A DNA stretch of 64,000 bases from Pseudovirgaria hyperparasitica (GCA_010093815.1 ML996578.1); one strand, 5' to 3'; shown: positions 4,370 through 42,003, numbered from the stretch's first letter. Numbers and translations are program-made. The notes: generated from the letters alone by a model not told the origin.

Positions 4370-5472
4370 AGAGAGAGAGAGAGAGAGAGAGAGAGCAACT
4401 GGCGGCGGCGGCAGTGGACGCGCACGTCATGAGCGCTTATTGTGGCTGCATGATTGCCAGCGAAGCCTGCATGACAGGCATGAGGTAGTATCGTGTATTC
4501 TAGAGGAAGAGGAGGGAGGGTGTTGCTCGTTGTGGAGGTTAAGGTGGAGGTGGAGGTAAAGGATGAGGAGGAGGGTTGTGGTGGTTGGTGGTGGTTAGTG
4601 GTGGAGAGAGATGGAATTGAGGGAATGGGCGATTGGGATTGGTGGTAGAGGGGCTAGCAATTAGTCCATTTGGGACCAGTAAGGACCAGTAGGCAGCTTA
4701 ATAGCTTGACTAGCTAGTCGGCTAGTAGACATACCATACCATACCATACCATACATACATACAGTACCCATCCATACAGTACCCATACAGTCAGTACCCA
4801 TATATGGCTAGGGAGGGAGGTTTGTAGCAGAGGTGAGAGGTGTAGGTAATAGAGAGCGAGCAGTGAGAGGCAGTAGGCTGCTGGTCCATTTGGCGCGAGA
4901 CGGGCCTATACCCAGCTAATTCTGCCCCACCAACACCGCCAACTCTCGCTCTCGTTTCCCTCTCTGTCGCTCCCACCTGTCTTTTTATTGCCCTCTCTCC
5001 TCTCTCTCTCTCGACAGCCAACAGCCAACAGCTCCCCCCCCCCTCTTCATCCCCCCTCTGTTCCCCCTCATTGCTCGCCCCCTACACCCCCCTCCCCCCC
5101 TGTTTCCTCCCTCTGTGGTCCAAATAACTCTGCGCCTACACCCGCAGACCCGTTCCCGTTGTCTAAACACTGCTGAGGTGCATCAGATGTCGGTCATGTG
5201 ACTCGCTAGCAAGGGTGCAAAATCCGCTCTTAGCCAACCACAGCCTGCCCTGGCCTCTGCGCTGGTGCTCTGCCCTATCTCCACCACAATTGTCTTGGTG
5301 TTGTCGCCTCTATTACTCTACATAATACTACATCAATCAGATGAACCTGATCACTCATGTCTCCATCCATTTCTAGCTGACACCCACCACCCCCTTTCTC
5401 TCACTTCTCTCACTCTTTTCACACACGTACACACACGCACACACACACACACATACACATACATACATACAC
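4370..5472. repeat. Microsatellite cluster: (GA)n 4370-4395, (CATAC)n/(CATA)n about 4730-4762, C-rich tract about 5030-5100, (CA)-rich 5420-5472
   Basis: Simple repeats visible directly in the long intergenic region upstream of the 5847 gene. Confidence 0.85.
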
Positions 5473-5846
5473 GATACTATCTATTACTTACTCTCTGTAC
5501 CTCCGTCTTGCTGCAAATATCTTCTTCTCGTCTCTTCATCCTCCTCCGACATGTGCTGTTGTCATGCTGCAGCCGCTTCCGACCAGTATTAGCTTCTCTT
5601 CTCATGTGGCCCCGTAGCGCTATCGCTTCTGCATGCCCTCTTCACAATCTCTGCTTGCATTCTGCTCTGACTTCTCCAAAGTCTTTTCCACTCCTCCACT
5701 ACCGCTACTGTTGCTCTTCACTTACGCTCGTTCCTGTCCGTTGTCACTCTATCTGCGCCGCGCTGCCTGCTGTTTGCCGCTCCACTCGCGAAACAGGCCA
5801 TTTATCCGGTAGATGATTGAGTTACCCCGCCTAGACCGCCGCAGAC

Positions 5847-7538
5847 ATGGCTTCCAGTACTTTCATCTTGAAGCTGTCAAACGAACTACTGCGCGATGTC
5901 CTGGACCATATCGAGGCCGATCCCGAGAAGCTGGTTGGACTCGACCGTCGGGCGTACCTATCACAGGAGAGCTTTAGCATCAGACCGCCACCCATCCCAG
6001 AACGGAGCCAGGCACAGGACATTGGCAACTTTCGACTAGCTTGTAGGCGCTTCTCCGAGCTGGGCGCCATACATCAGTTCTCACGCGTCACCACGCGTTT
6101 TTCTCGAGGGGGTTTGAGGAGGTTAGAGAATATAGCGGGGCGGGAACACCTTGCCAAGCATGTTAAGAAATTTAGTTACATGGTACCGTATTTTTACGTC
6201 AAAGGTCCTCCTACCCATTCAACCCAACACCTCCAAATAGACTCCACTGACTTTGCACCACCTGCAGGCCGAGAAAGACTTAATGAACTGCTTCCCAATT
6301 TGCCCGAAAGTCTCGGTGCACTGGATGTGAGTCACTTTGTCACAAAAGCAACAGAACAGAGAGAGATCGTTGAGACCGAAGAAGATGTACGCGTTCTCAA
6401 GAAGGCATTACTAGCATTCACATCCCTCCAACATGTGCAGATTCTCAGAGTTCAGGACCATGAGGATCAAATGCTCATCTCTTACATTCGACAACACGAG
6501 CACAGCCATCAGCTAGTAGAGCTCAACTGGGCGCCAGCATGCTCGCACAGTACAAAGACTCTCGTCGTCGCTCTCCTTGCCTCCAGGTCACCATGCTCGC
6601 GCTTTTCCTCACCTATGCTAAGCCCGCAATCTGCCGTCGTGCTTGTGGAGCGGCCGTTGCAGTCGTTTTCGACTCTTGCAGAGCGGCTGACGTGTCTGGA
6701 GCTCCACTTCGACGATGGCAACGATCTTGACAACAAGATGCGCGAGCTATCGTCAGTCTTCAAGACTGTTTTCACTGCTGCAAAGAACATGCAAGCAGTC
6801 CATGTCGGCTTCCCATCGCACCGACCACTAGGCCTGAAACTCGAGGAGCTTTTCCATAATGTTCGGTGGGAGAAGCTAGTAGCTTTCGGCATTCAGTCCT
6901 GGAGACTGGATGCAAGCGAAATAATTGCCATGGCTAAGCGGCATCGAGAGCGACTAAAAGGCCTGAGGCTGCGCGACGTGCAGCTGAAGGAGGGCAGCAT
7001 GTGGAAAGACGTGCTAGGCTATCTGCACGACGACATGCTTCGCCTAGACTGGGTGAGTCTTCGTCGCATCGGCTACGAAAAGACCTTTGATGCACAGTGG
7101 TCCATGGGTGCCGAGGTGCCAGATGACCCGCCAGGTGGCGGGAGTGACAGCGACGACGAGAGCGACACCTGGGATCCGCATGCTGACCTTGACGACGATG
7201 ATGATAATTATGATGACATGGCTGATGACCAGCCACAGAGTCAGACAAACTTCGACAACGCAGATCAGGATGGAGACAGTGATTCCGACACCTCGACCTG
7301 GGAATCAGAAGATGGCACCGAGGCTGAAGAAGGTGCGTCTGGCGACGCTGGCATGGGCTTTCCACCGCTATCGCCAGACACTCCTTCAAGCCTACGCTGG
7401 TGCAACTGCAATGGCCACAATACGTACCCAAGCTCAGCCGAGGAGCTTGATGACGACGGTGAGATAGTCAGCAATGTCAAGAGGAAGATGTGGGAGAAGT
7501 GGGTCGTCAGAAGGTGCTTCCAACACAGCTTCAAATGA
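5847..7538 (+). CDS. F-box-like domain protein with acidic C-terminal tract; probable in-frame intron 6205-6267
   Basis: N-terminal ILKLSNELLRDVLDHI...DIGNFRLACRRFSELG, LRR-like middle region, Asp-rich tail. The 63-nt segment reads GT...CACTGAC...CTGCAG. Confidence 0.7.
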   Translation: MASSTFILKLSNELLRDVLDHIEADPEKLVGLDRRAYLSQESFSIRPPPIPERSQAQDIGNFRLACRRFSELGAIHQFSRVTTRFSRGGLRRLENIAGREHLAKHVKKFSYMVPYFYVKGPPTHSTQHLQIDSTDFAPPAGRERLNELLPNLPESLGALDVSHFVTKATEQREIVETEEDVRVLKKALLAFTSLQHVQILRVQDHEDQMLISYIRQHEHSHQLVELNWAPACSHSTKTLVVALLASRSPCSRFSSPMLSPQSAVVLVERPLQSFSTLAERLTCLELHFDDGNDLDNKMRELSSVFKTVFTAAKNMQAVHVGFPSHRPLGLKLEELFHNVRWEKLVAFGIQSWRLDASEIIAMAKRHRERLKGLRLRDVQLKEGSMWKDVLGYLHDDMLRLDWVSLRRIGYEKTFDAQWSMGAEVPDDPPGGGSDSDDESDTWDPHADLDDDDDNYDDMADDQPQSQTNFDNADQDGDSDSDTSTWESEDGTEAEEGASGDAGMGFPPLSPDTPSSLRWCNCNGHNTYPSSAEELDDDGEIVSNVKRKMWEKWVVRRCFQHSFK

Positions 7539-8692
7539 AGTTAGGTCACTGACCATTCCTGTCAATTCGCACTCGCGATGTACTTGTACGGCACAGCAAA
7601 CACACTTTCGGCATCACTCAGAGACTGCCTATCTTGGTATACTTCTTGTACATGACATTACACACCAATCGCGCCAGCTTTTCGGTATACGACATCGCTC
7701 GCCCTTCATTTCACACACATACATACACACACATATACACACACACACATACACGCCTTCGTGCCGATGATCCTGGGAGGCTGTACTCACTCACCATTAC
7801 GCTGATCAACGTCTTTTCAGAGACTTTTTTTTTATTTGGATACTATTTACACGCATGAGAGACGAGCAACGAAGTCACGTATGAGCACCATTTGAGAGAA
7901 AAAGTTGAACATGAATGAGTCCGGCGGCCAAACATCGATTATCAATCTGACTTTTTGTCAACCGTCCATTTAGACAGAGTTTTTGAGAACTTATCAGGAT
8001 TGTTTGAATCTGGGGCTCAGTTCGGGGCACGCACCTTTTTTCCAATCACTGTTTCTATGGAACTCGAATCTACCTCAGGATTGCTATATATACATACATA
8101 TATATATATCCCTTTATACACTACTTTCCCCAAGAAGTCTCAACATATAACGTGCAGGCAGCTACAATGGCCACACCACCTCAGCGGAAAGCCGCCACTC
8201 CTCTTCATTAGGAAGATTAGCTATGAATAGATATCTATTGTGACTTGGTCTTTTATGGTAGAGAAGAACCCGAGGCTCTTCCGGCTGAATCCCGGCGATA
8301 TGGGTTTGTGTACGTCCTGTCCTGCCTGCCAAGCGTATCCGGGTAGGGCTGATCGTGCTTTCTCCATGCGAGAGATAAAAAAGTGAGGCCTGCTAGATGA
8401 CGTTTCTAGTGGACATCCCGTGCTCGTAGTGGTTGTAGATCCATGCGACCTGTCGGTGGCTGTGGCAGAGCGGATGGCATGCATCTATCACAGGTCTTAA
8501 ATACACATATCTTTGTTTATATCTCCATGATTTGGACAGACAGAAACAGAATAGACGTACAGTGATTTTCCATATTTTCAAGCTCTAGAAAAACGTCTAC
8601 CATCTAATGTCCTACACCGAAAAGAAACCCTCCCCGGGGAAAAAAAATGCATTTCCTCCAAACCACCCCGTTTTTTCCCCTCTCTTCCTTTC

Positions 8693-9839
<1,147 letters not shown>

Positions 9840-30228: not shown

Positions 30229-30821
30229 AGGACCTGGTGGTGTAAAATGTTCATCAGGCGAGCGAGTCGAAGTGTTCTGTTTCTTCCAAGGTTGTTTCAG
30301 AAAGACGCTAACATGTTCGATTCCCCACCCGCGCGAGTCCTTGGGATTCGCTGCCTAGACCCGCCACTGCTTCAATCAAATTGCTGCCCCGCGATCCCGG
30401 CCAACCATAACTCGCCGTCTCTGCCGTTTTCCACTCCAGTCCTGCACGTCAACACTACTACTGTACTATTATTTATTAAACATCACTGCCCTCGCCCGTT
30501 GCCAACGTGGAAAGACTTGCGGCATTGTCAGTCCAAGCTCTGGCGCAAGTGGAGCCTCTCTAGCTATGCACGTTGGCTCATTCTCGGTCGCATACTTTGC
30601 AGGGGAAGAGAGAGAGAGAGCAAGAAGAAAACCAGATGAATTACAGATCGCCCACTCTTCTTCGTCGGAACACTGTTAATTCTCACACCTCTGATAGATA
30701 GTGCGAAAAGAGAGGCTTCTGTGAGACTGTACGGCATCCATCTCCAGCAGGGCGGTGAGGGAGCTCTCCACCTTGCCACCGACCATTGGGGAGGTTTCAC
30801 GTGAGGGGATACTGCAGTACC

Positions 30822-30953
30822 TGTGGGATTCCTATTAGGTAATCCCCGTTACTCAGATCTTATTCAGCGTTAGGCTGGTATATATAGCACTTAGATAGAC
30901 TTAGTAGACACGTTAATCAATTTTACCACGTCTAATTTACCAAAGTTCCCACA
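30822..30953 (+). repeat. 5' LTR (132 bp)
   Basis: TGTGGGA...TCCCACA termini; 127 of 132 positions identical to 39646-39777. Confidence 0.97.
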
Positions 30954-30955
30954 TC

Positions 30956-30962
30956 TAGTAGC
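30956..30962 (+). other. Putative primer-binding site
   Basis: TAGTAGC 2 nt after the LTR. Reversing one TG>TA change gives TGGTAGC, the start of the tRNA-iMet-type PBS of Ty1/Ty3. Confidence 0.45.
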
Positions 30963-31394
30963 TGAAATCTGGTTTTTATCCTCCTAGGGAGGCTATCGCT
31001 TTAGCGATACCTCCTAAGGGGTAGTTATCTTACCCCTTATATAAGGGAACTCGTTAAAAACATTTAATGCTCACGATAAACTATATAACTTACTAGATAA
31101 TAATAAGAACGAACCTAGAGTCTAACACGAAAACCCTTCTCTAAAGCGATACATCCTAATTTTAGAGATGGAAATTACGGTAATAAAGCTTAACGACTAA
31201 ATTCGATAGTCCTAGCGGATAGTAATATATTATAAAATAAGCTAAAAGAGTCACGTAAGAAAAATATATATTAACTCCCCCTATGTCCGCGATAGATATC
31301 CTAGCTACTCGTTAATATAAATTAACGCCGTAATTCTAACTCGGAAGATAATTATTACCCTAGGAAACGCCTTCCTTACCTAAGCTATATTAAG

Positions 31395-32672
31395 ATGTCT
31401 TCCTTATAGAACCCTAATTATAATAGCGATGTCTCTATAGGAGGAGCTAATACTCTCTAAAATATAGGACGCGCCCGTAATGAGCCGTTAAACACTATTA
31501 ACGCGCTTACCGCGCTCCTTAATACCAACCCGGCTATAAGGGACCTTACTAGAGACGCTCGTACGTTAGTACTAATTAATATATATACTAATCGACTCGA
31601 GTCATAAATAAGGAACGACTATGTTACTCGAGAAGAACTAGTAAGAGACTTTAATAACCTCCTCCTTAATAACCCTAACTAGGCGAGCCTAGCTATACTA
31701 GTAAGAAGAGGCCGTATCCTACTCCGAGCACCCGATATATACTTAGAAGAAACTAGAGATAACGCCTACGAAGAATAGTGCTTATTAATCTAGGAATAGA
31801 TTTATACTATAGAATTAGTAGAGCGCTAGGAAGCTATACCTAAGTTCGAGAAACTATAAATCTACGGGATATATATATTAAAGTATATCCGCACCCTTTA
31901 GCGTAGCCTTATAGAAGCCCGTGGACGTAATAACCTAGGTAGTCCTTAAATACTAGACGGCTTCCTAGACGTTATACGTTAAATATATATCTCTACTAAT
32001 CGCCCCGAATAGCGTAGAAAGGAATAGGAGAACCTTACTTAATATCGTTTTAGATCTACCTCGAAGCTTATTAACGCTATCGTTAAAAAGGCACGACTCC
32101 TACGACCTATACCTTCTAAATATAAGATATAGCGTAGAATTCTAGGCGCCCTTAAGTCTAAGGTTTAACGTAAGATCGAAAAGTAGCCCTTTCCTCCTAT
32201 AGGATTAGGAGAGTAGTACCTATAGATGAAGAGGCTAGAGGAAGCCTTATATACCTACTCTAGAAACGAATACTATAGGCGGGAGGCTACTTATTATATT
32301 AATACTATATATTACTAAGACGAAGAGGAGGAACCGGAAGAATTCGAACCTTCTAAGGACTTATACATATGCGAAGATAAATTAGGCGACTACTCTAGAG
32401 ACAAGGGTAAGCTCCACGCGTTCGTGAAGCGTTAATAGAGTAACCGAGGCCGCGGTAGAGGCTAGAACCGAGGCCGAGGCTATAGTAAATACTAAGGGGG
32501 CTCGTTAAGAGCTCTTAACGAAACCCAAGAATACTTTAACTATAAGAAGTTAGGATATATCTCGAGATTCTACCCCGAAAATCCGACTCTAGGTAAGCTA
32601 GCCTACGTTACTACCGAGGACGACGCGTTAAGCGTCTTTAACGAAGAGGCCCTAAAAGCTAGTCGCCCGTAG
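31395..32672 (+). pseudogene. gag: gag (RIP-mutated) with CCHC zinc knuckle
   Basis: ATG 31395 is in frame with tactttaactataagaagttaggatatatctcgagattctac (about 32532-32573), which de-RIPs to CFNCKKLGHISRFC. An RG-rich stretch precedes it. Confidence 0.8.
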
Positions 32673-35600
32673 TAGATATAGAAGACACCACGAGCGACTA
32701 TAAGAGCTTCTATACTAATAATACTAATGAAAATAAGATAAATATATAGGACTACGAACATATTAACGCGCTTTATAAATCGCTAGAGAGTGCCTACTAT
32801 TATTAAGAGGAGTTAACGGACGTTATTAACGATCGCCTCTATTAACTAAACTCCATTAGTAGATAGTTACTAGAACTTAAGGCTTACGTAGGGGAAGTCC
32901 ACCCCTAGAGGGTTTTAGTCCTTATTGACTATGGGGCTAATAGAACATATACGTTAACGAAGGTTACTAGGCGTCTAAAGCTAGTGCCGTAACCTGCCCC
33001 CGTAATACGTGTTAAGCTTCCGTTAGGAGCCCTAATAATAAGTCGAGAAGTTATAAAAATCCCTCTTTATATAGAAAGCTTTACTTACGAAGTCTCCGCG
33101 AGAGTACTCGACCTTAAGGGCTACGATCTAATTCTAGGTTATAAATGGCTTTACGAATAGGATCCCGATATATCGTAGAGATCCTATTCCCTAGTAATTA
33201 GGAGGCTAGTAGCTCGAGGAAGGACTAAGGAGTATCTCCTTAAGGGGATTCCCGCGTTAATCGATATTAACTTATAAGGAGAATAAGTACTAAACGTCCT
33301 TACCGCTAGCTAAGCACGGAAATAATATCTAAATGGCTATAAGTAAGGTGTAATATGGTTTATTAGGAAAGACAACCCTCCTATACTATAGGCACCCGAC
33401 CTAATACTATAAACGGTTTTAACGGAGTACTAGGACGTCTTTAAAGAGAAGCTACCTAAAGGACTACTACCTTCGAGATAATAGGACTATAAGATAGATA
33501 TAGGAGACGGCCGACCCGTTAATAACGCCGCCTACCGTCTCTCCCTAGAATAAATCGCTAAATAGTAGAAGTAGATATAGGAGCTTATCGAGCGAGGGCT
33601 TATCTAAGAATTAGAAAGTGCCTAGGGTAGCCTAGTACTTTTCGTACCCAAACCCGGAGGCAAATAGCGAATATATATTAATTATTAAGTACTTAATACA
33701 CTTACGTGTAAGGATACGACCCCTCTTCCGCGTATAGACGAATGCCTACGTGCCTTCGGCTAGTTAATAGTATTTAGTAAGATGGACTTAACCTTAGGGT
33801 TTTAGTAAGTACGAGTAGCCGACGAAGACGTCCCTAAGACCGCCTTTAATACGATTCACGGTAAATACGAGTTTAAGGTAATACCGTTCGGTCTATTAAA
33901 CGCACCTACCATATTCTAAAAGATAATAAATCGAGTCCTTTAACCCCTACTATATAAATCCGTGGTTATATACCTTAACGATATTATTATCTTTTCCGAA
34001 GATATAGAAGAACACGCTAGAGTACTATTAAAAGTACTTACTCTACTCCGTAAATACCGCTTACTTACTAATCCGGAGAAATATAGTTTTAGCTAGACCG
34101 AAGTTAACTTCTATAGATACCACGTCTTATAAGGATAACTTCGCCCGATAAAGGATAAGATTAAGGTAATTCGCGAATGGCTAGAGCCCACGAACGTTAG
34201 CGAAGTCCGATAGTTCCTCGGCCTAGCGAATTATTATTAGAGGTATATCCGGGGATTCGCGAGTATCGCCGTACCCCTAATAGACCTCCTTAAGGAAGTA
34301 GACCCTCTTATCTATAAATAGAAATATAGGTCTATTCGATAGACGCTATTAACGGCGTTTACCTTTAAGACTCTAAAGAATGCCCTATGTTCCGAACCGG
34401 TTCTAGCTTAACCTAATAAGACTAAGCCCTTCTATATTAAAACGGATATAAGTAACTATGCGATCGGTATAGTAATCTACTAGGAGGATCCTAGTAAGTA
34501 GTATTAGCCAATCGCGTTTAACGGACGAAAGCTTAATAGCGCCGAGCTTAACTATCCGGTTCATGAAAAAGAACTCCTTACTATTAAACACGCCCTACGC
34601 ACTTAGGGATACCTACTAGAAACAAAGAAGACGACGATCCTAACCGATTACCATAGCCTATAGTTCCTTAAGTCTATAAAGGAATAAGGAGACCGTGTAG
34701 ATAGATAGATCGATGAGTTCGGAAGCTTCGATCTCGATATAAAATATCACCTAGAATCTAAGGCGGTAGTACCTAACGCCATTAGTAGAAGGCTAGACTT
34801 CTAAGGCGAGATCTCCGCGATACTATTAAGTAAAGTTAACGAACACGTTCTTATAGCCTAAATCATCGAGTTCCTAAAAGGAGCCGACCCGATAGAGTAT
34901 ATACTAAAAGTCTCTCCTAAAATCCTATCTCGACTACGCCTTGACGCCGAGAGTAAACTTTAATATAAGCTATGGGATTTTAATAATAGTTAAGAAGATT
35001 TAGCGGAAAATTCAGCACCTTATATCCCGGAATAATACCGTAAGTCGCTAGTAGAAACTATATATTAATAATTCGGTTACTTTATATGGCCCGGACTACT
35101 AGGAGCCCTAGAAAAATAAGGCTAGTAGTTTAAAATGAAGAAAGACGTAGAGGTAGTCGCTTATAATTACCGTTAATGCTAATTAGCGTAACGAGTACTA
35201 CCAAATCCATAACACGAGAGATAGTTTTATAGGGTTACACGCCGAGCACCCTTTAAAGAATAGGGTATCAACTTTATAGGCGTACTCCCCACTACGTATA
35301 ACGGTAATAGTTAGGTGATAATAGTAATTAACTACGTAACGGGATGGTCTATTATATAGGCAGTCCCTGAGGCGACCGTAGAGTCCGTCGCGAGGTTCAT
35401 TTACGAATAAATCTTTATAGATTTTAGACCCCCCGCCGCACTAACCTTAGATAACGGTTAATAGTTCCTATTAAGAGTGGTTGGCGTACTACTACGCATC
35501 CTTAAGACGGAATATAAACTTACCACGCCTTATTACCCTCGTATAAACGGAAAGGTCGAACGCCTTAATAGAACCTTAGGAGGCATCCTTACCTATATAT

Positions 35601-36997
35601 ATATAGGCGAACTAGTAACCAACTAGGACATATACTTACCAGCCGCTGTTTTCGCCATAAGGATCCGACGACATAGGAGTATAGGAGTTAGTCTATATTA
35701 TCTAGTATATAGATAGTACCCTAACTTACTAGGGAACATTCCTAGAGAAAAGGATAAGTTAATATCCTTTAATAAACTTATTAAGCGAGTTAAGAAAGTG
35801 TAACACGCTAGGACGCTAGCGCTAAATAAACTACTTATGGAAGCCGCTCGCCGAGACCTTATAGATCCGACTCGGCTTAAACCTAAAGACTAGGCGCGAC
35901 TACCTATCGGTCAAATCGTTTTACTAAAGAATGAATAGAAAACGAAGTTTAAAACGAACTACTTAGATCCCTATAAGGTTTATATATAACACCCCTTAGG
36001 TATATACGCGCTAGAAACACCTAACGGACGTATCCTACGATACCTTATATATAGTAATAGACTAATTACGGTAAGAGGTATTAATAAGCTAGATAACTTC
36101 TAGACGAGATAGGAGATTAACTTATAAATATCTAAGGAAATTAGGAATTAAGTAGTACCTTACTTACTAGACATCGAGAAGGTTTTAGAGAAAGAGAAAC
36201 CTACCCTATATTAGACGACTCTATCCTCCCTTCCTAAGAAGGAGTAGAACCGGCTATAGTAGCTACGGAGTTAATAAGAGTTAACGTACGAGGGCGTACG
36301 TTCGTTCGTAGTAGGGGAGAGCTCGATAGACATAGATATTACACGTTAAATTAGGCTTACTAATATAAGAAATCGATATAAACGGAGAGCTACCGTAACT
36401 ACGTTAATCGTACTAGTGCTAAACGTTATTAACGAACTAAGAAATATACTAGAAGAATAACACGAGAATAGCGGAGCGATATAACCGCCGATAATAAACA
36501 TTAAAGAGAGCTATGATGCTCCAAGGGTAGAGGAAGCCTAAACGATAACTAAGAAACCGATAGATAACCCGTTAAATAAGATTAATACGATAGAGGAAGC
36601 CACGATAGAAGTAAGACAGAAAGAATTACCTAAAGAAATAAGCTTAGGAGACGAGTTTAATGATACACGAATGGACTTAGATAAGGATATCCAACTAGAA
36701 TATAAGAATCCTATAAGTATAGATATAGACTCGGATATAGAAGAAGTGTTAAAGGAGGTTAACGAAGTAAATAAACAACCCCTAACCGACTCGGACGTCC
36801 CTATACGGGATCTTATAGAAAGCGAACCTTACACGCGAAAGAGAAAGTAATCCTATATAGATGAACGTAGTAGAGAAACCTAAGCGGCTATAGCTAGCGC
36901 GTTAAGATAAGTTAATAGATTAGAGGGAGAGAGGTACTCTCTACGGAAAAAGATATTACCTTTAAAGCTATTATAGGAAAGCTTAGAATATAACTAA
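32669..36997 (+). pseudogene. pol: pol (protease, RT, RNase H, integrase, long C-terminal tail), RIP-mutated
   Basis: Motifs checked in one frame: LID.GA 32921, YLDD-equivalent 33971, TTPYHP.TNGKVER 35522, RYSLR 36932. Also seen: PLPRIDE about 33722, KTAF, (M)PFGL.NAP, NYPVHEKELL about 34550. Ends are approximate. Confidence 0.93.
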
Positions 36998-37266
36998 CTT
37001 TAGTCTTTCCCTAATTATCTCCTTTATATATAGTACTACTAACCCCCCATTTACTTATTTAGAATATATACGGCCGTTAAAGAAGATTAACGAGCCTTAG
37101 AAATTACTAGGAGGTTAAAGAAAGAAGACGTGGACTTATAATGACATTATATAAGTCTAAAATCGCTATTTAAGAACCGCAAGACTAAATAGAGATAAAA
37201 GAAAGCCGTTAACGCCTTTTGACGCTTAATAAGATGGGGTATTATTATAAAATAGAAGCCGCCTAC

Positions 37267-39262
37267 TTAGTCCTAGACCTTACGAGTAGAATTTAGTGGA
37301 TTCTTCATAAATTATACTAATACCTTCTCGCCCTCCTCGGGCATGCCATTATTAATTAAGAACTTATATAGTAGCCCTTAAGGCGTGCGGCTAACCTCGC
37401 TAAACGCGTTTATTAGACGACTAAACCAATCTTTAACGGCTTCGTTAAGCGGAAGTCCTTCATCTTTAAGGTCCTATATAGGATAAATAGAGATGATACT
37501 CGGGTTAGGAGGTATAGTATTATTAAAGCTAGGAACGAGGACCTCCGGACCGCCGTAATACATCTATTCTATTATAGCTATAACCTTTTAATTAGCTAGA
37601 GATTACACGAGATATAGATCTAACTTACGAGCGAAGGACTAGCCTTAGAGTTTAACCTAGTCTCCTTAAGATCTAATAACTTCTTTTAACGAAGTTTAGT
37701 AGCCGAATACTTTCTAGTGGCCTTAGTTATCTCTATAAATAAAGACTACTCGGTATGTTAGCGCTTTTTAATAATATTACGCTCGCCACGGTATACTATA
37801 GGAACGCGTTAAACCTATTAAAAGCCTTTAACGATATAAAGGAATAACTTATAACGCGATATACTATAGAATTTCCCATTCCCTTAGTGGAAATAGTTTA
37901 AATAGGTACCTTTAAATAGTAGGAACCCGTTAGGAAAAAGCTACATATACTCCCTAAAGATGCCTTTACTAGTAGAATAAGAACTATAGGCGCTCTCGCT
38001 AAAGTGCTAGTATATACCGCGAGCTATTATACCTAGGATAGCCGGAATAGTATAGGGATATAACCTATCTAGGCGTTTCGAAGGATCCCGAAAGATTCCT
38101 CCTCCTACCACGATATTCTAAGAATAATAGTAGTTACTAAACTTATCCGTTATATAGAACGGAAGTAGATTCTTCGGAATTAAGGCGTGCTAACCGCTGG
38201 CGTACGCCTTAATAAGGCCATCGATAAATTCCTTATAGAGCGCTCCGTTAATAGGAGGGTCCGAGAATAGCCACCCTAGGATAAGTTAGCTAACCGTTAA
38301 AGATAATTAACGAGATAAGGACTTACTCTAGTAAGCTAACCACTATATAAACTTAATAGACTTCCCCGAAAAGAAGTAGTAATTAGATTAAATTCAGAGG
38401 CCTATGCGACCTACTACTTCGATCTCGGCATCGCCATAGCTATTAAGTTTATTTACCATAGGTTACGCTATCGTACTAACCTTACGAGAAGCTATAGACC
38501 CCTTTCACTTCACGGGAGTCTTCTTAACGACCTTATTAGGACTTTTAAGGTCTATAATAGCCAGCTTAGAAGTTATAGAGCGAGTTTTAGGGCTGTTAAA
38601 CACCTTTAATAGAGTCCTTACGGCACTACGGGTCTTTACTAGAGTCCTAGGTATTCTAGGACGAGAGCCTAGATAAGAATTAGGAACTAGAATCTTAATA
38701 TAAGACTTAGCGACTTACCTTTCTTAGTTACCTTAGGAGTAACTATATCGCCGAGCTCGTTAACTTCGATTAACGTATTACTATTAAGGTCTAATAACCT
38801 AGAGCTTTCCCTATCTTTATTTTTAGGATAGAAAATATTATTAGAGTCTTCCGATAGGTTCGCGAACCGACTAGCTTTTATAGGGGCTTCGAAGGGCTCG
38901 TTAATAGCTATTACTAATCCTTAAGAGGCCGGAGCCTTAACTTTAGCCTTAGAGACCTTAGGTTTAAGGCTCTAACCGCCTTCTTCGATTAACTAAGCTA
39001 AAGCTTTATCTTCTAGGTCTAGTTCTTAAAAGAATAGCGAACCCTAAGGCCCGTTTAGATATAGATAGCCGTAGGCTATCTTTAAGTAACTCTTACGAAC
39101 TATATAGTTAACCTATACTTAAGGAATAAGGTAACTTAACCTACTATCTAGAGCACCTTCATTCGCCGCTAACACTTTATTAAGCGATAACTAGTTAGGA
39201 TTTCCGTATAGAGGACCTAAGAAAGCACGACGAAGATCCTTATTTATAACTATATCCGCTAT
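37267..39262 (-). pseudogene. Antisense five-exon accessory gene inside the retrotransposon (about 597 codons; DUF3716-like Cys motif), RIP-mutated
   Basis: Exons 39262-38719, 38668-38327, 38275-37853, 37795-37629, 37584-37267. Intron phases 1,1,1,0 join into one frame. Internal stops are TAA/TAG (RIP of CAA/CAG/TGG) plus two TGA (consistent with CGA). Confidence 0.8.
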
Positions 39263-39301
39263 AGGAAGTTTAAGTTAGAAGGGAAAAAGATAAAGTTAAA
39301 G

Positions 39302-39311
39302 TTTATATATA
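39302..39311 (-). promoter_or_regulatory. TATA-like box for the antisense gene
   Basis: TATATATAAA about 40 nt upstream of the inferred start. RIP also creates TA runs, so this is weak evidence. Confidence 0.4.
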
Positions 39312-39632
39312 TGAAATTATAGTATTAATCGGAGTAATTTCTAAGTTCACAGGAGTTTCAGCTATGTTATTAGATATTATTAAAAGGATTTAGCGCTGGA
39401 AAAAACTAAGGAAAAGGTCGAATTAGTTAAGAAATATAAGGTTAAAGGACGGTAGAATATAGGAATAGTAAAGGTAACTATTTAGCACTAAAATAAGCTC
39501 GGACTACTACCCTTACGCGACGTGTCGCTAATACGGCCTAGCGCTAAAGAGATTTCATACGCCTACCTCCCTATATTATATATTCTAACTCCGTTAATCG
39601 TCTTTAACGGCCTCGTAGAAGCTTATATAATT

Positions 39633-39645
39633 AGGAGGGGGAAGA
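39633..39645 (+). other. Polypurine tract
   Basis: AGGAGGGGGAAGA directly abutting the 3' LTR. Confidence 0.9.
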
Positions 39646-39777
39646 TGTGGGATTCCTATTAGGTAATCCCCGTTACTTAGATCTTATTTAGCGTTAGGCT
39701 AGTATATATAGCACTTAGATAGACTTAGTAGACACGTCAATCAATTTTGCCACGTCTAATTTACCAAAGTTCCCACA
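39646..39777 (+). repeat. 3' LTR (132 bp)
   Basis: Direct repeat of 30822-30953. Confidence 0.97.
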
Positions 39778-40120
39778 TACCCAACCATGCTGCCAGGTCC
39801 ACCTAACTGAAGCGCGCAACTCCTACAGAACACAGACACACGAAAGGTCTTTCGTTGCATCTCTTCACTTTCCCTTCCAAGAGTTCCTTCATGTAGTCGT
39901 TTTGGTTGCAACCATTCAGCCAAAGATTGACCCATCTTTGCAGCCTGACGTCATATGGTGACTTAGGAAGATACCGTGCCGTCTTGCACAATTTCTCGCT
40001 TCAAATTTCATCATATTTTCTGTCTGTCCTTTCAGTAACGATCGGCTCACCACCTCACGTGCTTCGAATTCCATAGTCAATCCTTGTGGAACAGTATTCT
40101 CGAGTTAGAAGCCAAGCATC

Positions 40121-42003
40121 ATGCCGACCTTGGCAGTGGTTAACTTCAATATCGTCTGTGCGACGTTAGGTGGCTTCATCACTGCCTTCGGACTTGTTTC
40201 CTATCTGCTCAAAGAGAAATACTACCTATCCGAAGCTCGTACGTACTAGCTTCCGTGCCCAAGCCCTTGCTGATCCGTGAAGTCATATCTACGCTTGCGG
40301 GCGTAGTCTTTGGACCACATGCGGCAAACTTCCTCAGGCCGCTTGATTATGCCTTGGGTGACGAAGAGGCATTGGGTACAATCACCTTGTATTTCACAAG
40401 GCTAGTCCTCGGTGTGCAGCTCGTGCTTGCTGGCGTTCAGCTTCCAAGCAGATATCTAATACTTGAATGGAGAAGTCTTGGTTTACTTATCGGTCCTGGT
40501 ATGACCGGGATGTGGGTCATGACAAGCCTTCTCGTATGGGCAATGGTCCCTCATCTAAGCTTCTTACATGCTCTCGCTGTTGCTGCATGTGTCACTCCGA
40601 CTGACCCTGTATTATCAAACTCCATTGTCAAAGGTAAGTTCGCGGACAAGAACATACCAAAAGAGCTGCAGAAGATCATAACGGCCGAGTCGGGTGCAAA
40701 TGATGGACTCGGCTATCCTTTTCTCTTCCTTCCCCTCTATCTTATCAAGTACATTGGGGAGGGTGGTGCAGGTCAAAGTGGAGGAGCCGGTAAGGCTATA
40801 GGCTACTGGTTTGGTGAAACCTGGGCCTACACCATCATTCTTAGTATCGTCTATGGCGGCGTGGTCGGGTGGATCGCGAAAGAGCTCTTGCACTGGGCCG
40901 AAGAGAGGAAATTTGTGGATAAAGAAAGCTTCCTGGTGTTCGCTATCACCCTAGCTGTAAGTTCTGCCTATCAGTGCAATCTTCTCTTCTAACCTATGGT
41001 AGCTGTTCATAGTTGGTACTGTGGGTATGATAGGCAGTGACGACGTACTTGCCTGCTTTATTGCTGGAAATACGTTCACATGGGAGTAGGAAATGATCAT
41101 GATCTGACTATGAGTCTCAGACTGACAATCGATAGTGACTGGTTCCGCCTCGAGACATTGGACGATTCATTCCAACCGACCATTGACATGCTTCTAAATG
41201 TCACAGTCTTTGTGTGGTTTGGCGCCATCTGCCCTTGGCATGAGTTTGCCCACAACAATGTGATCCCTATATACAGGCTCATCTTTCTGGGCATCCTGAT
41301 TATGCTGCTCCGCCGACTACCAGTCATATTCGCCCTGCACAAGAAGATACATCAGATTGAAGACTTCCGCCACGCCTTGTTCGTTGGATTCTTCGGACCC
41401 ATCGGCGTCTCCGCCATCTTCTATCTTTATGTCAGCTTGGAATTTCTAAGAGGTATTACGGTTGATGGTGAGCAGCGTGCAGATGCCCGGAAGCTTGCTG
41501 AAGTAATGTATGTTGTAATTTGGTTTGCAACAATCTGCAGCATCGTAGGTCTACAATCATCGAATATTCGCTTGACTGCTGACAACAACCAGGTCGTCCA
41601 TGGTTTAAGTATACCTGTGGGGAAACTAGGCTTTTGGATCCCACGCACGTTGTCCAATGCTGTGACCTCTGCAAGTGGTAGCGATACACCATTTCGCACC
41701 CGTGGTACCGCTCTTGAGAATACTGATCTGAGTGCGCGCGCACGTCGCTCCGGTAACACAACGCCAACAGGTGATAGCAGTCTTCCTCGATCTCTATATC
41801 GCATTGGGGGATCCATCATCCGTAGCAAACCAGGACAACATGGCCCCCCGAGGGATGCCTTAGCTTCACAGGATCGAATCACTGTTCCTCCCACTACAAT
41901 CGACGGCGGTATTGCTCCGAGAGCTATTCGCTTCCCAGATGATGTCGGAGATTCGCAATTGCCAGAGATCGCGCGCGCACGAAGCTCTACCAGGAGCAGC
42001 TGA
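40121..42003 (+). CDS. NHA1: Plasma-membrane Na+(K+)/H+ antiporter; introns 40239-40282, 40957-41002, 41086-41135, 41545-41592
   Basis: FGLVSYLLKEKYYLSEA, ACVTPTDPVLS, AESGANDGLGYPF, GSDDVLACFIAG, LRRLP, GFFGPIGVSA, SIVVHGLSIP. It may be a paralogue within the Nha1/Sod2 family. Confidence 0.85.

Follow-up and report, generated by a model that had tools for sequence, protein, structure and literature searches.

The window analysed here is a 64,000-nucleotide stretch of Pseudovirgaria hyperparasitica DNA (GCA_010093815.1 ML996578.1). It contains a complete Ty3/Gypsy long terminal repeat (LTR) retrotransposon of 8956 bp, inserted on the plus strand at 30822–39777 and heavily degraded. On the opposite strand, between pol and the 3′ LTR, minus-strand positions 37854–37994 are very probably the DUF3716 domain (PF12511) of an accessory gene belonging to the element, destroyed by repeat-induced point mutation (RIP). 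GC content is about 0.51 throughout the window except from 30.8 to 39.8 kb, where it drops to about 0.38 (0.38 within the element versus 0.51–0.52 in the flanks). Over 30822–39778, TpA/ApT is 1.77 and (CpA+TpG)/(ApC+GpT) is 0.23, compared with 0.73 and 1.2, respectively, in both flanks. Because the dinucleotide indices and the low GC content set the element apart from both flanks, RIP has acted across 30822–39778, and the two indices confirm what an initial annotation of this DNA had said of the region.

About 3.1 kb separates the end of pol (near 36530) from the 3′ LTR. In this interval the initial annotation had pointed to six TAT codons at regular positions in a minus-strand frame, which it read as the erased cysteines of a DUF3716-like motif at 37863..38022. 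The codons are present in one frame, with first bases at 37988, 37979, 37949, 37904, 37895 and 37868, and their spacing equals the Cys spacing of two related loci, L002 and L012. The site was placed correctly to within two bases, but the frame starts at 38024, and an exact translation of 37863–38022 gives the wrong frame. The raw minus-strand reading from 38024 is ARGIY*HFSESAYSSYSTSKGIFREYM*LFPNGFLLFKGTYLNYFH*GNGKFYSI, with three in-frame stops (38009–38007, 37943–37941 and 37886–37884). The domain remnant proper (37854–37994, minus) spans 47 columns, with TAT at all six Cys columns and two of the in-frame stops inside. By itself the TAT count is weak evidence: in the element's minus frames about 5% of codons are TAT, and 6 of 53 is only about twice that background. 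Every one of the six codons, in its present context, lies one RIP-type step from a Cys codon.

The domain remnant is carried by the putative last exon of the antisense gene, exon 3 (37560–38275, minus), whose frame and splice acceptor can be read and whose 3′ limit is approximate. Direct reading identifies candidate intron 2 ahead of it (38276–38326, minus; 51 nt, GTAAGT...GCTAAC...TAG), which keeps the frame into the domain-carrying exon. Putative exon 2 (38327–38668, minus) is basic and contains SP/TP motifs in its raw reading, GSRPRIPRTLVKTRS...SPKTRS...KSPNKVVKKTPVK. Removal of candidate intron 1 (38669–38718, minus; 50 nt, GTAAGT...TAG) joins the frame of a putative exon 1 region (38719–38990, minus; raw reading ...NEPFEAPIKASRFANLSEDSNN...VTPKVTKK, without an assigned start codon) to the exon 2 frame, which reads SRPRIPRTLVKTRS.... 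A three-exon antisense gene with a basic, SP/TP-rich middle segment, as had been proposed, fits these canonical GTAAGT...TAG introns joining open frames. As read, the window copy is a dead relic without a function of its own; it cannot make the protein because its six Cys columns read Tyr and three stops fall in the domain region.

Intact relatives and the register of the window

Eighty related loci on metagenome contigs were retrieved with the window pol (33644–36529, stops as X) and oriented with pol on the plus strand. Scanning all frames for the six-Cys pattern yielded minus-strand open reading frames (ORFs) 3′ of pol in L002, L012 and L026, and a local hidden Markov model (HMM) built from these three added minus-strand segments, also 3′ of pol, in L003, L001, L004 and L009. 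The PF12511 gathering score of 22 bits is exceeded in six of the seven loci (L012, 52.2; L002, 45.3; L026, 31.0; L001, 26.0; L003, 25.7; L004, 23.4 bits); the DUF3716-like segment of L009 is partial and scores 16.8 bits, under that threshold. These ORFs have the same place and orientation as the window gene. The initial annotation had named Tyr or His at these codons in less-mutated copies as evidence against its reading; the unmutated relatives have Cys at all six columns, in its favour. In L067 the pattern scan also returned a Cys-rich match, unrelated and upstream of pol. The Zn(II)2Cys6 family (Zn_clus), considered for the likeness of its CX2C...C...CX2C...C pattern, had no match in the relatives at E up to 1, and the DUF3716 domain has spacings (9, 14 and 8) that exceed those of that pattern.

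L002 represents an intact element. It encodes a gag (Retrotrans_gag and a zinc knuckle), a 1297-codon pol with protease (PR), reverse transcriptase (RT), RNase H (RH), Integrase_H2C2 and rve domains, and a 350-codon antisense DUF3716 frame. Exactly opposite this frame, at 5538–6749 on the plus strand of L002, lies a 403-codon open frame that matches no Pfam family; it is probably the shadow of a GC-rich, K/E-repeat coding strand, and may instead be an overlapping sense ORF. The domain of L004 is split by an antisense intron (GTAAGT...ACTAAC...CAG) whose splicing gives ...HRG|ACANC..., the conserved domain core, and in L009 a canonical fungal antisense intron likewise divides the domain over two frames. 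In L009, identical 69-bp repeats at 1919–1987 and 9411–9479 enclose both pol and the DUF3716 segment (8499–8630); they start TGTGATTCC, much like the window LTR. The L002, L012 and L026 contigs each carry the same 99–127 bases at start and end, as would be expected of a repeated element assembled onto itself. The copies L001 and L003 contain in-frame stops, and L012 is broken. The L012 copy is decaying, since its pol is broken into several ORFs; at 4930–5733 on its minus strand, the DUF3716 ORF is followed by a single stop and then by 125 more open codons in the same frame, with no Pfam family.

The common spacing of L002 and L012, Cx2Cx9Cx14Cx2Cx8C, is exactly that of the six TAT codons. A mask demanding a Tyr or Cys codon at each of these positions has a single fit among 127,754 placements over both strands of the window, at minus 37988, and any fit at all arose in 7 of 2000 first-order Markov simulations of the element. 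A gap-free 47-column profile was derived from three natural proteins, P0002–P0004 (down-weighted; described below), together with L012 and L026. A gap-free register was preferred because MAFFT aligned the window's first CxxC wrongly. Within the element the site ranks first of 17,632 placements with the raw profile (8.1 versus −7.6 for the next best, z 6.1), and again first of 17,632 when RIP-reachable residues are admitted (93.1 versus 28.8, z 9.3), Cys being reachable at all six Cys columns. Leaving out the six Cys columns puts it first of 127,714 in the whole window (19.7 versus 7.06 for the runner-up). Outside these columns, the unaltered peptide shares 8–10 of 40–41 residues with each natural domain, close to the 10–12 of 40–41 shared between natural domains of different subfamilies. 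By these two measures the window keeps the conserved non-Cys residues of the domain, which fall in G-x-F before Cys3, L-x-x-G-x-C-x-N-C and the terminal C-S. Two independent signals thus agree, namely Tyr codons on the Cys columns and matching residues elsewhere.

The distribution of the gene follows the RT phylogeny. RT–RNase H identity to the window is 46–49% for L001–L013 and L026 and at most 41% for all other loci. A quick IQ-TREE analysis (75 rows: the window, plus those 74 of the 80 loci whose high-scoring segment pair reached 250 aa, hence without L029, L033, L043, L050, L054 and L066; the careful search is unfinished) grouped the window with all seven loci that carry DUF3716 in one 16-row clade (SH-aLRT 99), with the window sister to L003 (support 92). 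The other eight rows of the clade stop at or soon after pol; L006, also of the clade, extends 1155 bp past pol and has no match. Among loci that extend 1300 bp or more beyond the projected pol end, the segment occurs in 6 of 6 inside the clade versus 0 of 13 outside. Five of these six pass Pfam and L009 is partial; L003 passes Pfam as well. The 13 loci outside the clade gave no match at E <0.1 (best E values 1.0 and 6.0) to the local HMM, the only model used in that scan and one that distant DUF3716 forms may escape. Judged by this distribution, the antisense DUF3716 gene is part of the element and common to the whole RT clade. Three earlier proposals gain support here. Membership of the DUF3716 family is backed by the relatives' ORFs, which pass PF12511 at the same place; encoding by the element is backed by the constant place and strand across the RT clade, inside the LTRs; and a mobile-element role for DUF3716 agrees both with a gene that forms part of a Gypsy element and with the link described in print for a DNA transposon (PMC8232023).

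The host element and its copies

The insertion is bounded by a TACC target-site duplication (left copy 30818–30821, right copy 39778–39781). The 5′ LTR (30822–30953, plus; TGTGGG...CCCACA) and the 3′ LTR (39646–39777, plus) are both 132 bp long and differ at five transition sites, and a polypurine tract, AGGAGGGGGAAGA (39633–39645, plus), stands immediately 5′ of the 3′ LTR. The LTR pair, the TACC duplication and the polypurine tract adjoining the 3′ LTR together establish that the element is a complete insertion wrecked by RIP, and the antisense gene lies inside it, between pol and the 3′ LTR and within the target-site duplication. In one plus-strand frame read through stops, RVP_2, RVT_1 and two RNase H families follow each other in the order of a Ty3/Gypsy pol. 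They correspond to an aspartic protease remnant (32909–33172, residues 804–891 of the frame starting at 30500; RVP_2, 18.6 bits, under the gathering score), the reverse transcriptase (33644–34111; RVT_1, 83.8 bits) and RNase H (34361–34714; RT_RNaseH_2, 88.4 bits, and RT_RNaseH, 78.4 bits). A Pfam scan of the plus frame gave no integrase match in the RIP-mutated window copy. The integrase and the C-terminal part of pol (34715–36529, plus) are recognised through relatives only, by tblastn, in which the window pol aligns up to residue 962 on L012 and up to 915 on L002, and by the integrase domains of the L002 pol, including rve. With the integrase (INT) so placed, the order is PR–RT–RH–INT, and TG...CA LTRs, target-site duplication and polypurine tract, the structural marks of a Ty3/Gypsy LTR element, are all present.

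The window LTRs are very short for Gypsy; L009 has the identical 69-bp core repeats described above, and the starts are alike in the two, TGTG(G)GATTCC. Beyond pol, the plus frame at 36530–36900 is unusually open for RIP-mutated DNA and includes an acidic stretch ending ...YTRKRK; the C-terminal part of P0002 gives a non-significant plus-strand tblastn alignment to this segment (E 0.64). About 500 bp 3′ of the 3′ LTR starts a Na+/H+ exchanger gene (40282–40600, plus; Na_H_Exchanger, 24.8 bits, truncated by the edge of the scan).

Further copies of the antisense region occur in sequencing runs. Positions 37450–38750 are matched at a likeness of at least 80% by 143 contigs of run X1 and 64 of run X2, both from the same sample. 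Differences from the window in X1 comprise 40 C>T, 30 G>A, 22 T>C and 16 A>G versus 6 transversions. As these many contigs differ mostly by transitions in both directions, the element family is multi-copy, with copies mutated independently. Runs X3 and X4, from another sample with the same species label, each hold one long contig of high word depth (9033 and 6345 nt) that matches window 37492–38624 piecewise only and at less than 90% likeness. Its differences mostly undo RIP (8 T>C and 2 A>G versus 1 C>T and 1 G>A), and it spans 339 letters against 447 in the window (37572–38020). This contig may come from a relative of the element that is less mutated and perhaps expressed.

Predicted protein, proposed role and alternatives

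Used as a query, the L002 domain region retrieved three proteins, P0002, P0003 and P0004, all with PF12511. P0002 (333 aa) equals the L002 ORF as read from the first Met of that frame and belongs to a cluster found on several contigs of up to 9954 bp; P0003 and P0004 (the latter from NCBI) are 66–70% identical over the region. The intact proteins are 332–360 aa long, and P0002–P0004 are 59–60% identical overall. Their invariant residues are packed into positions 2–56, 60–140 (the domain and the part following it) and 250–299, with almost none in the linker at 170–245, and all three end in KKRKR or KKRKRA. AlphaFold gave a mean pLDDT of 49.9 for the L012 domain and of 46.8 for full-length P0002, in which the domain falls near 30; the models resolve, with moderate confidence, just a long charged helix and helices at the C-terminus, and the domain is unusable. 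The nearest Atlas clusters, which serve as leads only, consist of Ascomycota DUF3716 proteins (scores 0.81–0.83; 59–77 members, 92–100% of them with PF12511).

These comparisons show an accessory gene that lies antisense between pol and the 3′ LTR and is common to one RT clade of Ty3/Gypsy elements. In its intact form it is open, sometimes interrupted by an antisense spliceosomal intron, and encodes a product of about 330–360 aa, laid out as a conserved N-terminal part, the Cx2Cx9Cx14Cx2Cx8C domain, a charged linker that varies, helices conserved near the C-terminus and a final KKRKR. An intron in antisense orientation outlasts retrotransposition because the sense genomic RNA is unspliced at that place, and an intron-bearing gene of this kind is expressed only from integrated DNA, from its own promoter. 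The antisense orientation would in this way keep the introns of the DUF3716 gene through retrotransposition, and the gene would then be transcribed from integrated copies by a promoter of its own. Six invariant Cys in a protein that has no signal peptide suggest zinc binding, and the basic patch at its end points to import into the nucleus. The full proposal is of a nuclear protein whose six Cys bind zinc and which attaches to DNA or chromatin to the element's benefit; it is tentative, and we rate it somewhat below even. Such a protein might target or tether integration, or control transcription or silencing of the element.

All profile and database searches with the window peptide used its unaltered, RIP-mutated sequence, and their outcome heads the points that weigh against a DUF3716 identity of the remnant and against the role proposed for its intact form. 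The window peptide has no PF12511 match at E up to 1 for the long frames or up to 10 for 55- and 107-aa pieces, and the 22-bit gathering score is not reached; nor does the local HMM built from the relatives find the site in the raw six-frame window. Word-indexed searches of 5.8 billion proteins returned no homologue for the raw antisense frame (0 of 2062 candidates) or for the motif region alone (0 of 6 candidates, E up to 10). An exhaustive phmmer search of 1.84 billion proteins produced a single match, P0001 (3205 aa, ten near-identical tandem ubiquitin-hydrolase units; E 9e-9), which we rejected as spurious because its score adds up ten weak stretches. His or an original Tyr is, from the sequence alone, as reachable as Cys at the six codons, and it is from the related loci that Cys is taken as the original residue. 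The raw profile ranks the site 2 of 127,714 over the whole window rather than first, and fourth when L012 and L026 alone are used; mask and profile layout, built from natural sequences only, were fixed after the match was known, and the 1300-bp cut-off of the clade comparison was picked after the distances were known. Both AlphaFold models are poor in the domain, and the domain lies near the N-terminus in P0002 versus after two low-complexity exons in the window. Zinc binding, nuclear location, DNA binding and a benefit to the element are, moreover, steps that we infer.

Several other hits of these searches were set aside. A Pfam match of the raw peptide to TaqI (E 0.14) was judged to be chance, and a sequence search of the PDB returned alcohol dehydrogenase only (E 0.17). 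Searching the element by tblastn with the natural proteins gave only noise, the best hit (E 0.03) being on the wrong strand. The case of P0001 illustrates how tandem repeats can create false positives in searches of this type.

Had the TAT codons arisen as a by-product of AT-rich, RIP-mutated DNA that never encoded DUF3716, their background frequency of about 5% and the want of a significant profile or database match for the raw peptide would be just as expected. We regard this as highly improbable: the mask has a unique fit in 127,754 placements and some fit in only 7 of 2000 simulations, the non-Cys columns alone rank the site first of 127,714, and it lies where the relatives have the domain, on the same strand. 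The gene might also be a passenger, a host DUF3716 gene captured once by an ancestral Gypsy element and carried along without serving it. The Atlas leads, by which DUF3716 proteins are mostly ordinary Ascomycota proteins, and the decay of several copies (in-frame stops in L001 and L003, the broken L012) would suit such an origin. Yet the segment holds its position and strand in all 6 clade loci that could be evaluated, themselves only 46–49% identical to the window in RT–RNase H, the invariant residues of P0002–P0004 form three blocks while the linker is free to vary, the intact element retains a 350-codon open frame, and the L004 intron still restores the domain; carriage without service to the element is accordingly improbable, if less so than chance.

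A further alternative concerns what the protein acts on. It might mainly alter host development or counter genome defence rather than assist transposition, for which REP9 of Zymoseptoria tritici offers a precedent. The two REP9 genes REP9-1 and REP9-2 carry DUF3716, changed expression of REP9-1 affects pycnidia formation, and with REP9 the domain occurs in a second transposon class, unrelated to the first (PMC8232023). We consider a mainly host-directed action unlikely, though distinctly less so than a mere passenger; it is compatible with a role that serves the element, and the two do not exclude each other. A broader conjecture, which we hold to be doubtful, is that DUF3716 was transposon-borne from the start, a six-Cys zinc module carried by Gypsy elements, antisense and with introns, and by IS3EU DNA transposons, of which host genes are domesticated copies. 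If so, DUF3716 would bind DNA or chromatin and steer integration or evade genome defence, and the Ascomycota DUF3716 genes, including a telomere-repeat binder, would be domesticated descendants. The reading we prefer is a RIP-destroyed DUF3716 domain in the element's own antisense gene.

Comparison with known systems

The closest known counterpart is brtn, an extra antisense gene of Boty elements whose source description is said to be that of Zhao et al. (2011, Virology 417:248). In Botrytis cinerea and Sclerotinia sclerotiorum, Ty3/Gypsy elements of the Boty and Boty-like kinds are described as carrying this gene (PMC7264820, PMC8365987, PMC4227169, PMC5987419), which lies between pol and the 3′ LTR as does the antisense gene of the window and its relatives. 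The likeness is one of gene position and orientation, and the pol of Boty is described with a chromodomain (PMC4227169), for which neither the L002 pol nor the window has a match. Since no domain is named for BRTN in the passages of these four papers that deal with it, brtn may be the same gene as the DUF3716 antisense gene. Plant LTR retrotransposons (Grande1, RIRE2, Retand and PvRetro13) are reported to contain antisense ORFs (aORFs) between pol and the 3′ LTR (PMC7264820); these have the same position and orientation and are conserved within families, but belong to plant elements, are not known to share a domain with the window gene, and are likened by position only.

On the side of the domain, the relatives' ORFs pass the curated PF12511 threshold, and the window keeps the same spacing and conserved non-Cys residues, whereas the window copy itself, with Tyr at six Cys columns and three stops in the domain region, fails the model. 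REP9 is described as an IS3EU-type class II transposon with two DUF3716 genes (PMC8232023). It resembles the window element in having DUF3716 genes inside an ascomycete mobile element and differs in being a DNA transposon with another gene arrangement, a comparison made by description only. The one experimental clue to the activity of a DUF3716 protein, namely DNA binding, comes by analogy from Neurospora crassa NCU05718, which is reported to bind double-stranded TTAGGG directly (PMC4650311) and is termed an orthologue of the DUF3716 protein PSC58 (PMC10776026). NCU05718 is a host gene whose DNA-binding part is not located in the account given (PMC4650311), and its DUF3716 content is taken from the PSC58 orthology.

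These comparisons place DUF3716, a widespread ascomycete domain, as a conserved, intron-bearing antisense gene of a Gypsy clade. The Gypsy setting adds to its reported presence in a DNA transposon and supplies a concrete context for functional tests. The window further illustrates how register with unmutated relatives can bring back a domain that RIP has erased, with no sequence altered. Keyword searches of the literature gave no paper joining DUF3716 or PF12511 to LTR retrotransposons, and the original account of brtn may already cover the same gene. Antisense extra ORFs such as brtn and the plant aORFs, and a transposon-borne DUF3716 as in REP9, were each already known, and what this element adds, unless brtn proves to be the same gene, is DUF3716 in an LTR retrotransposon clade.

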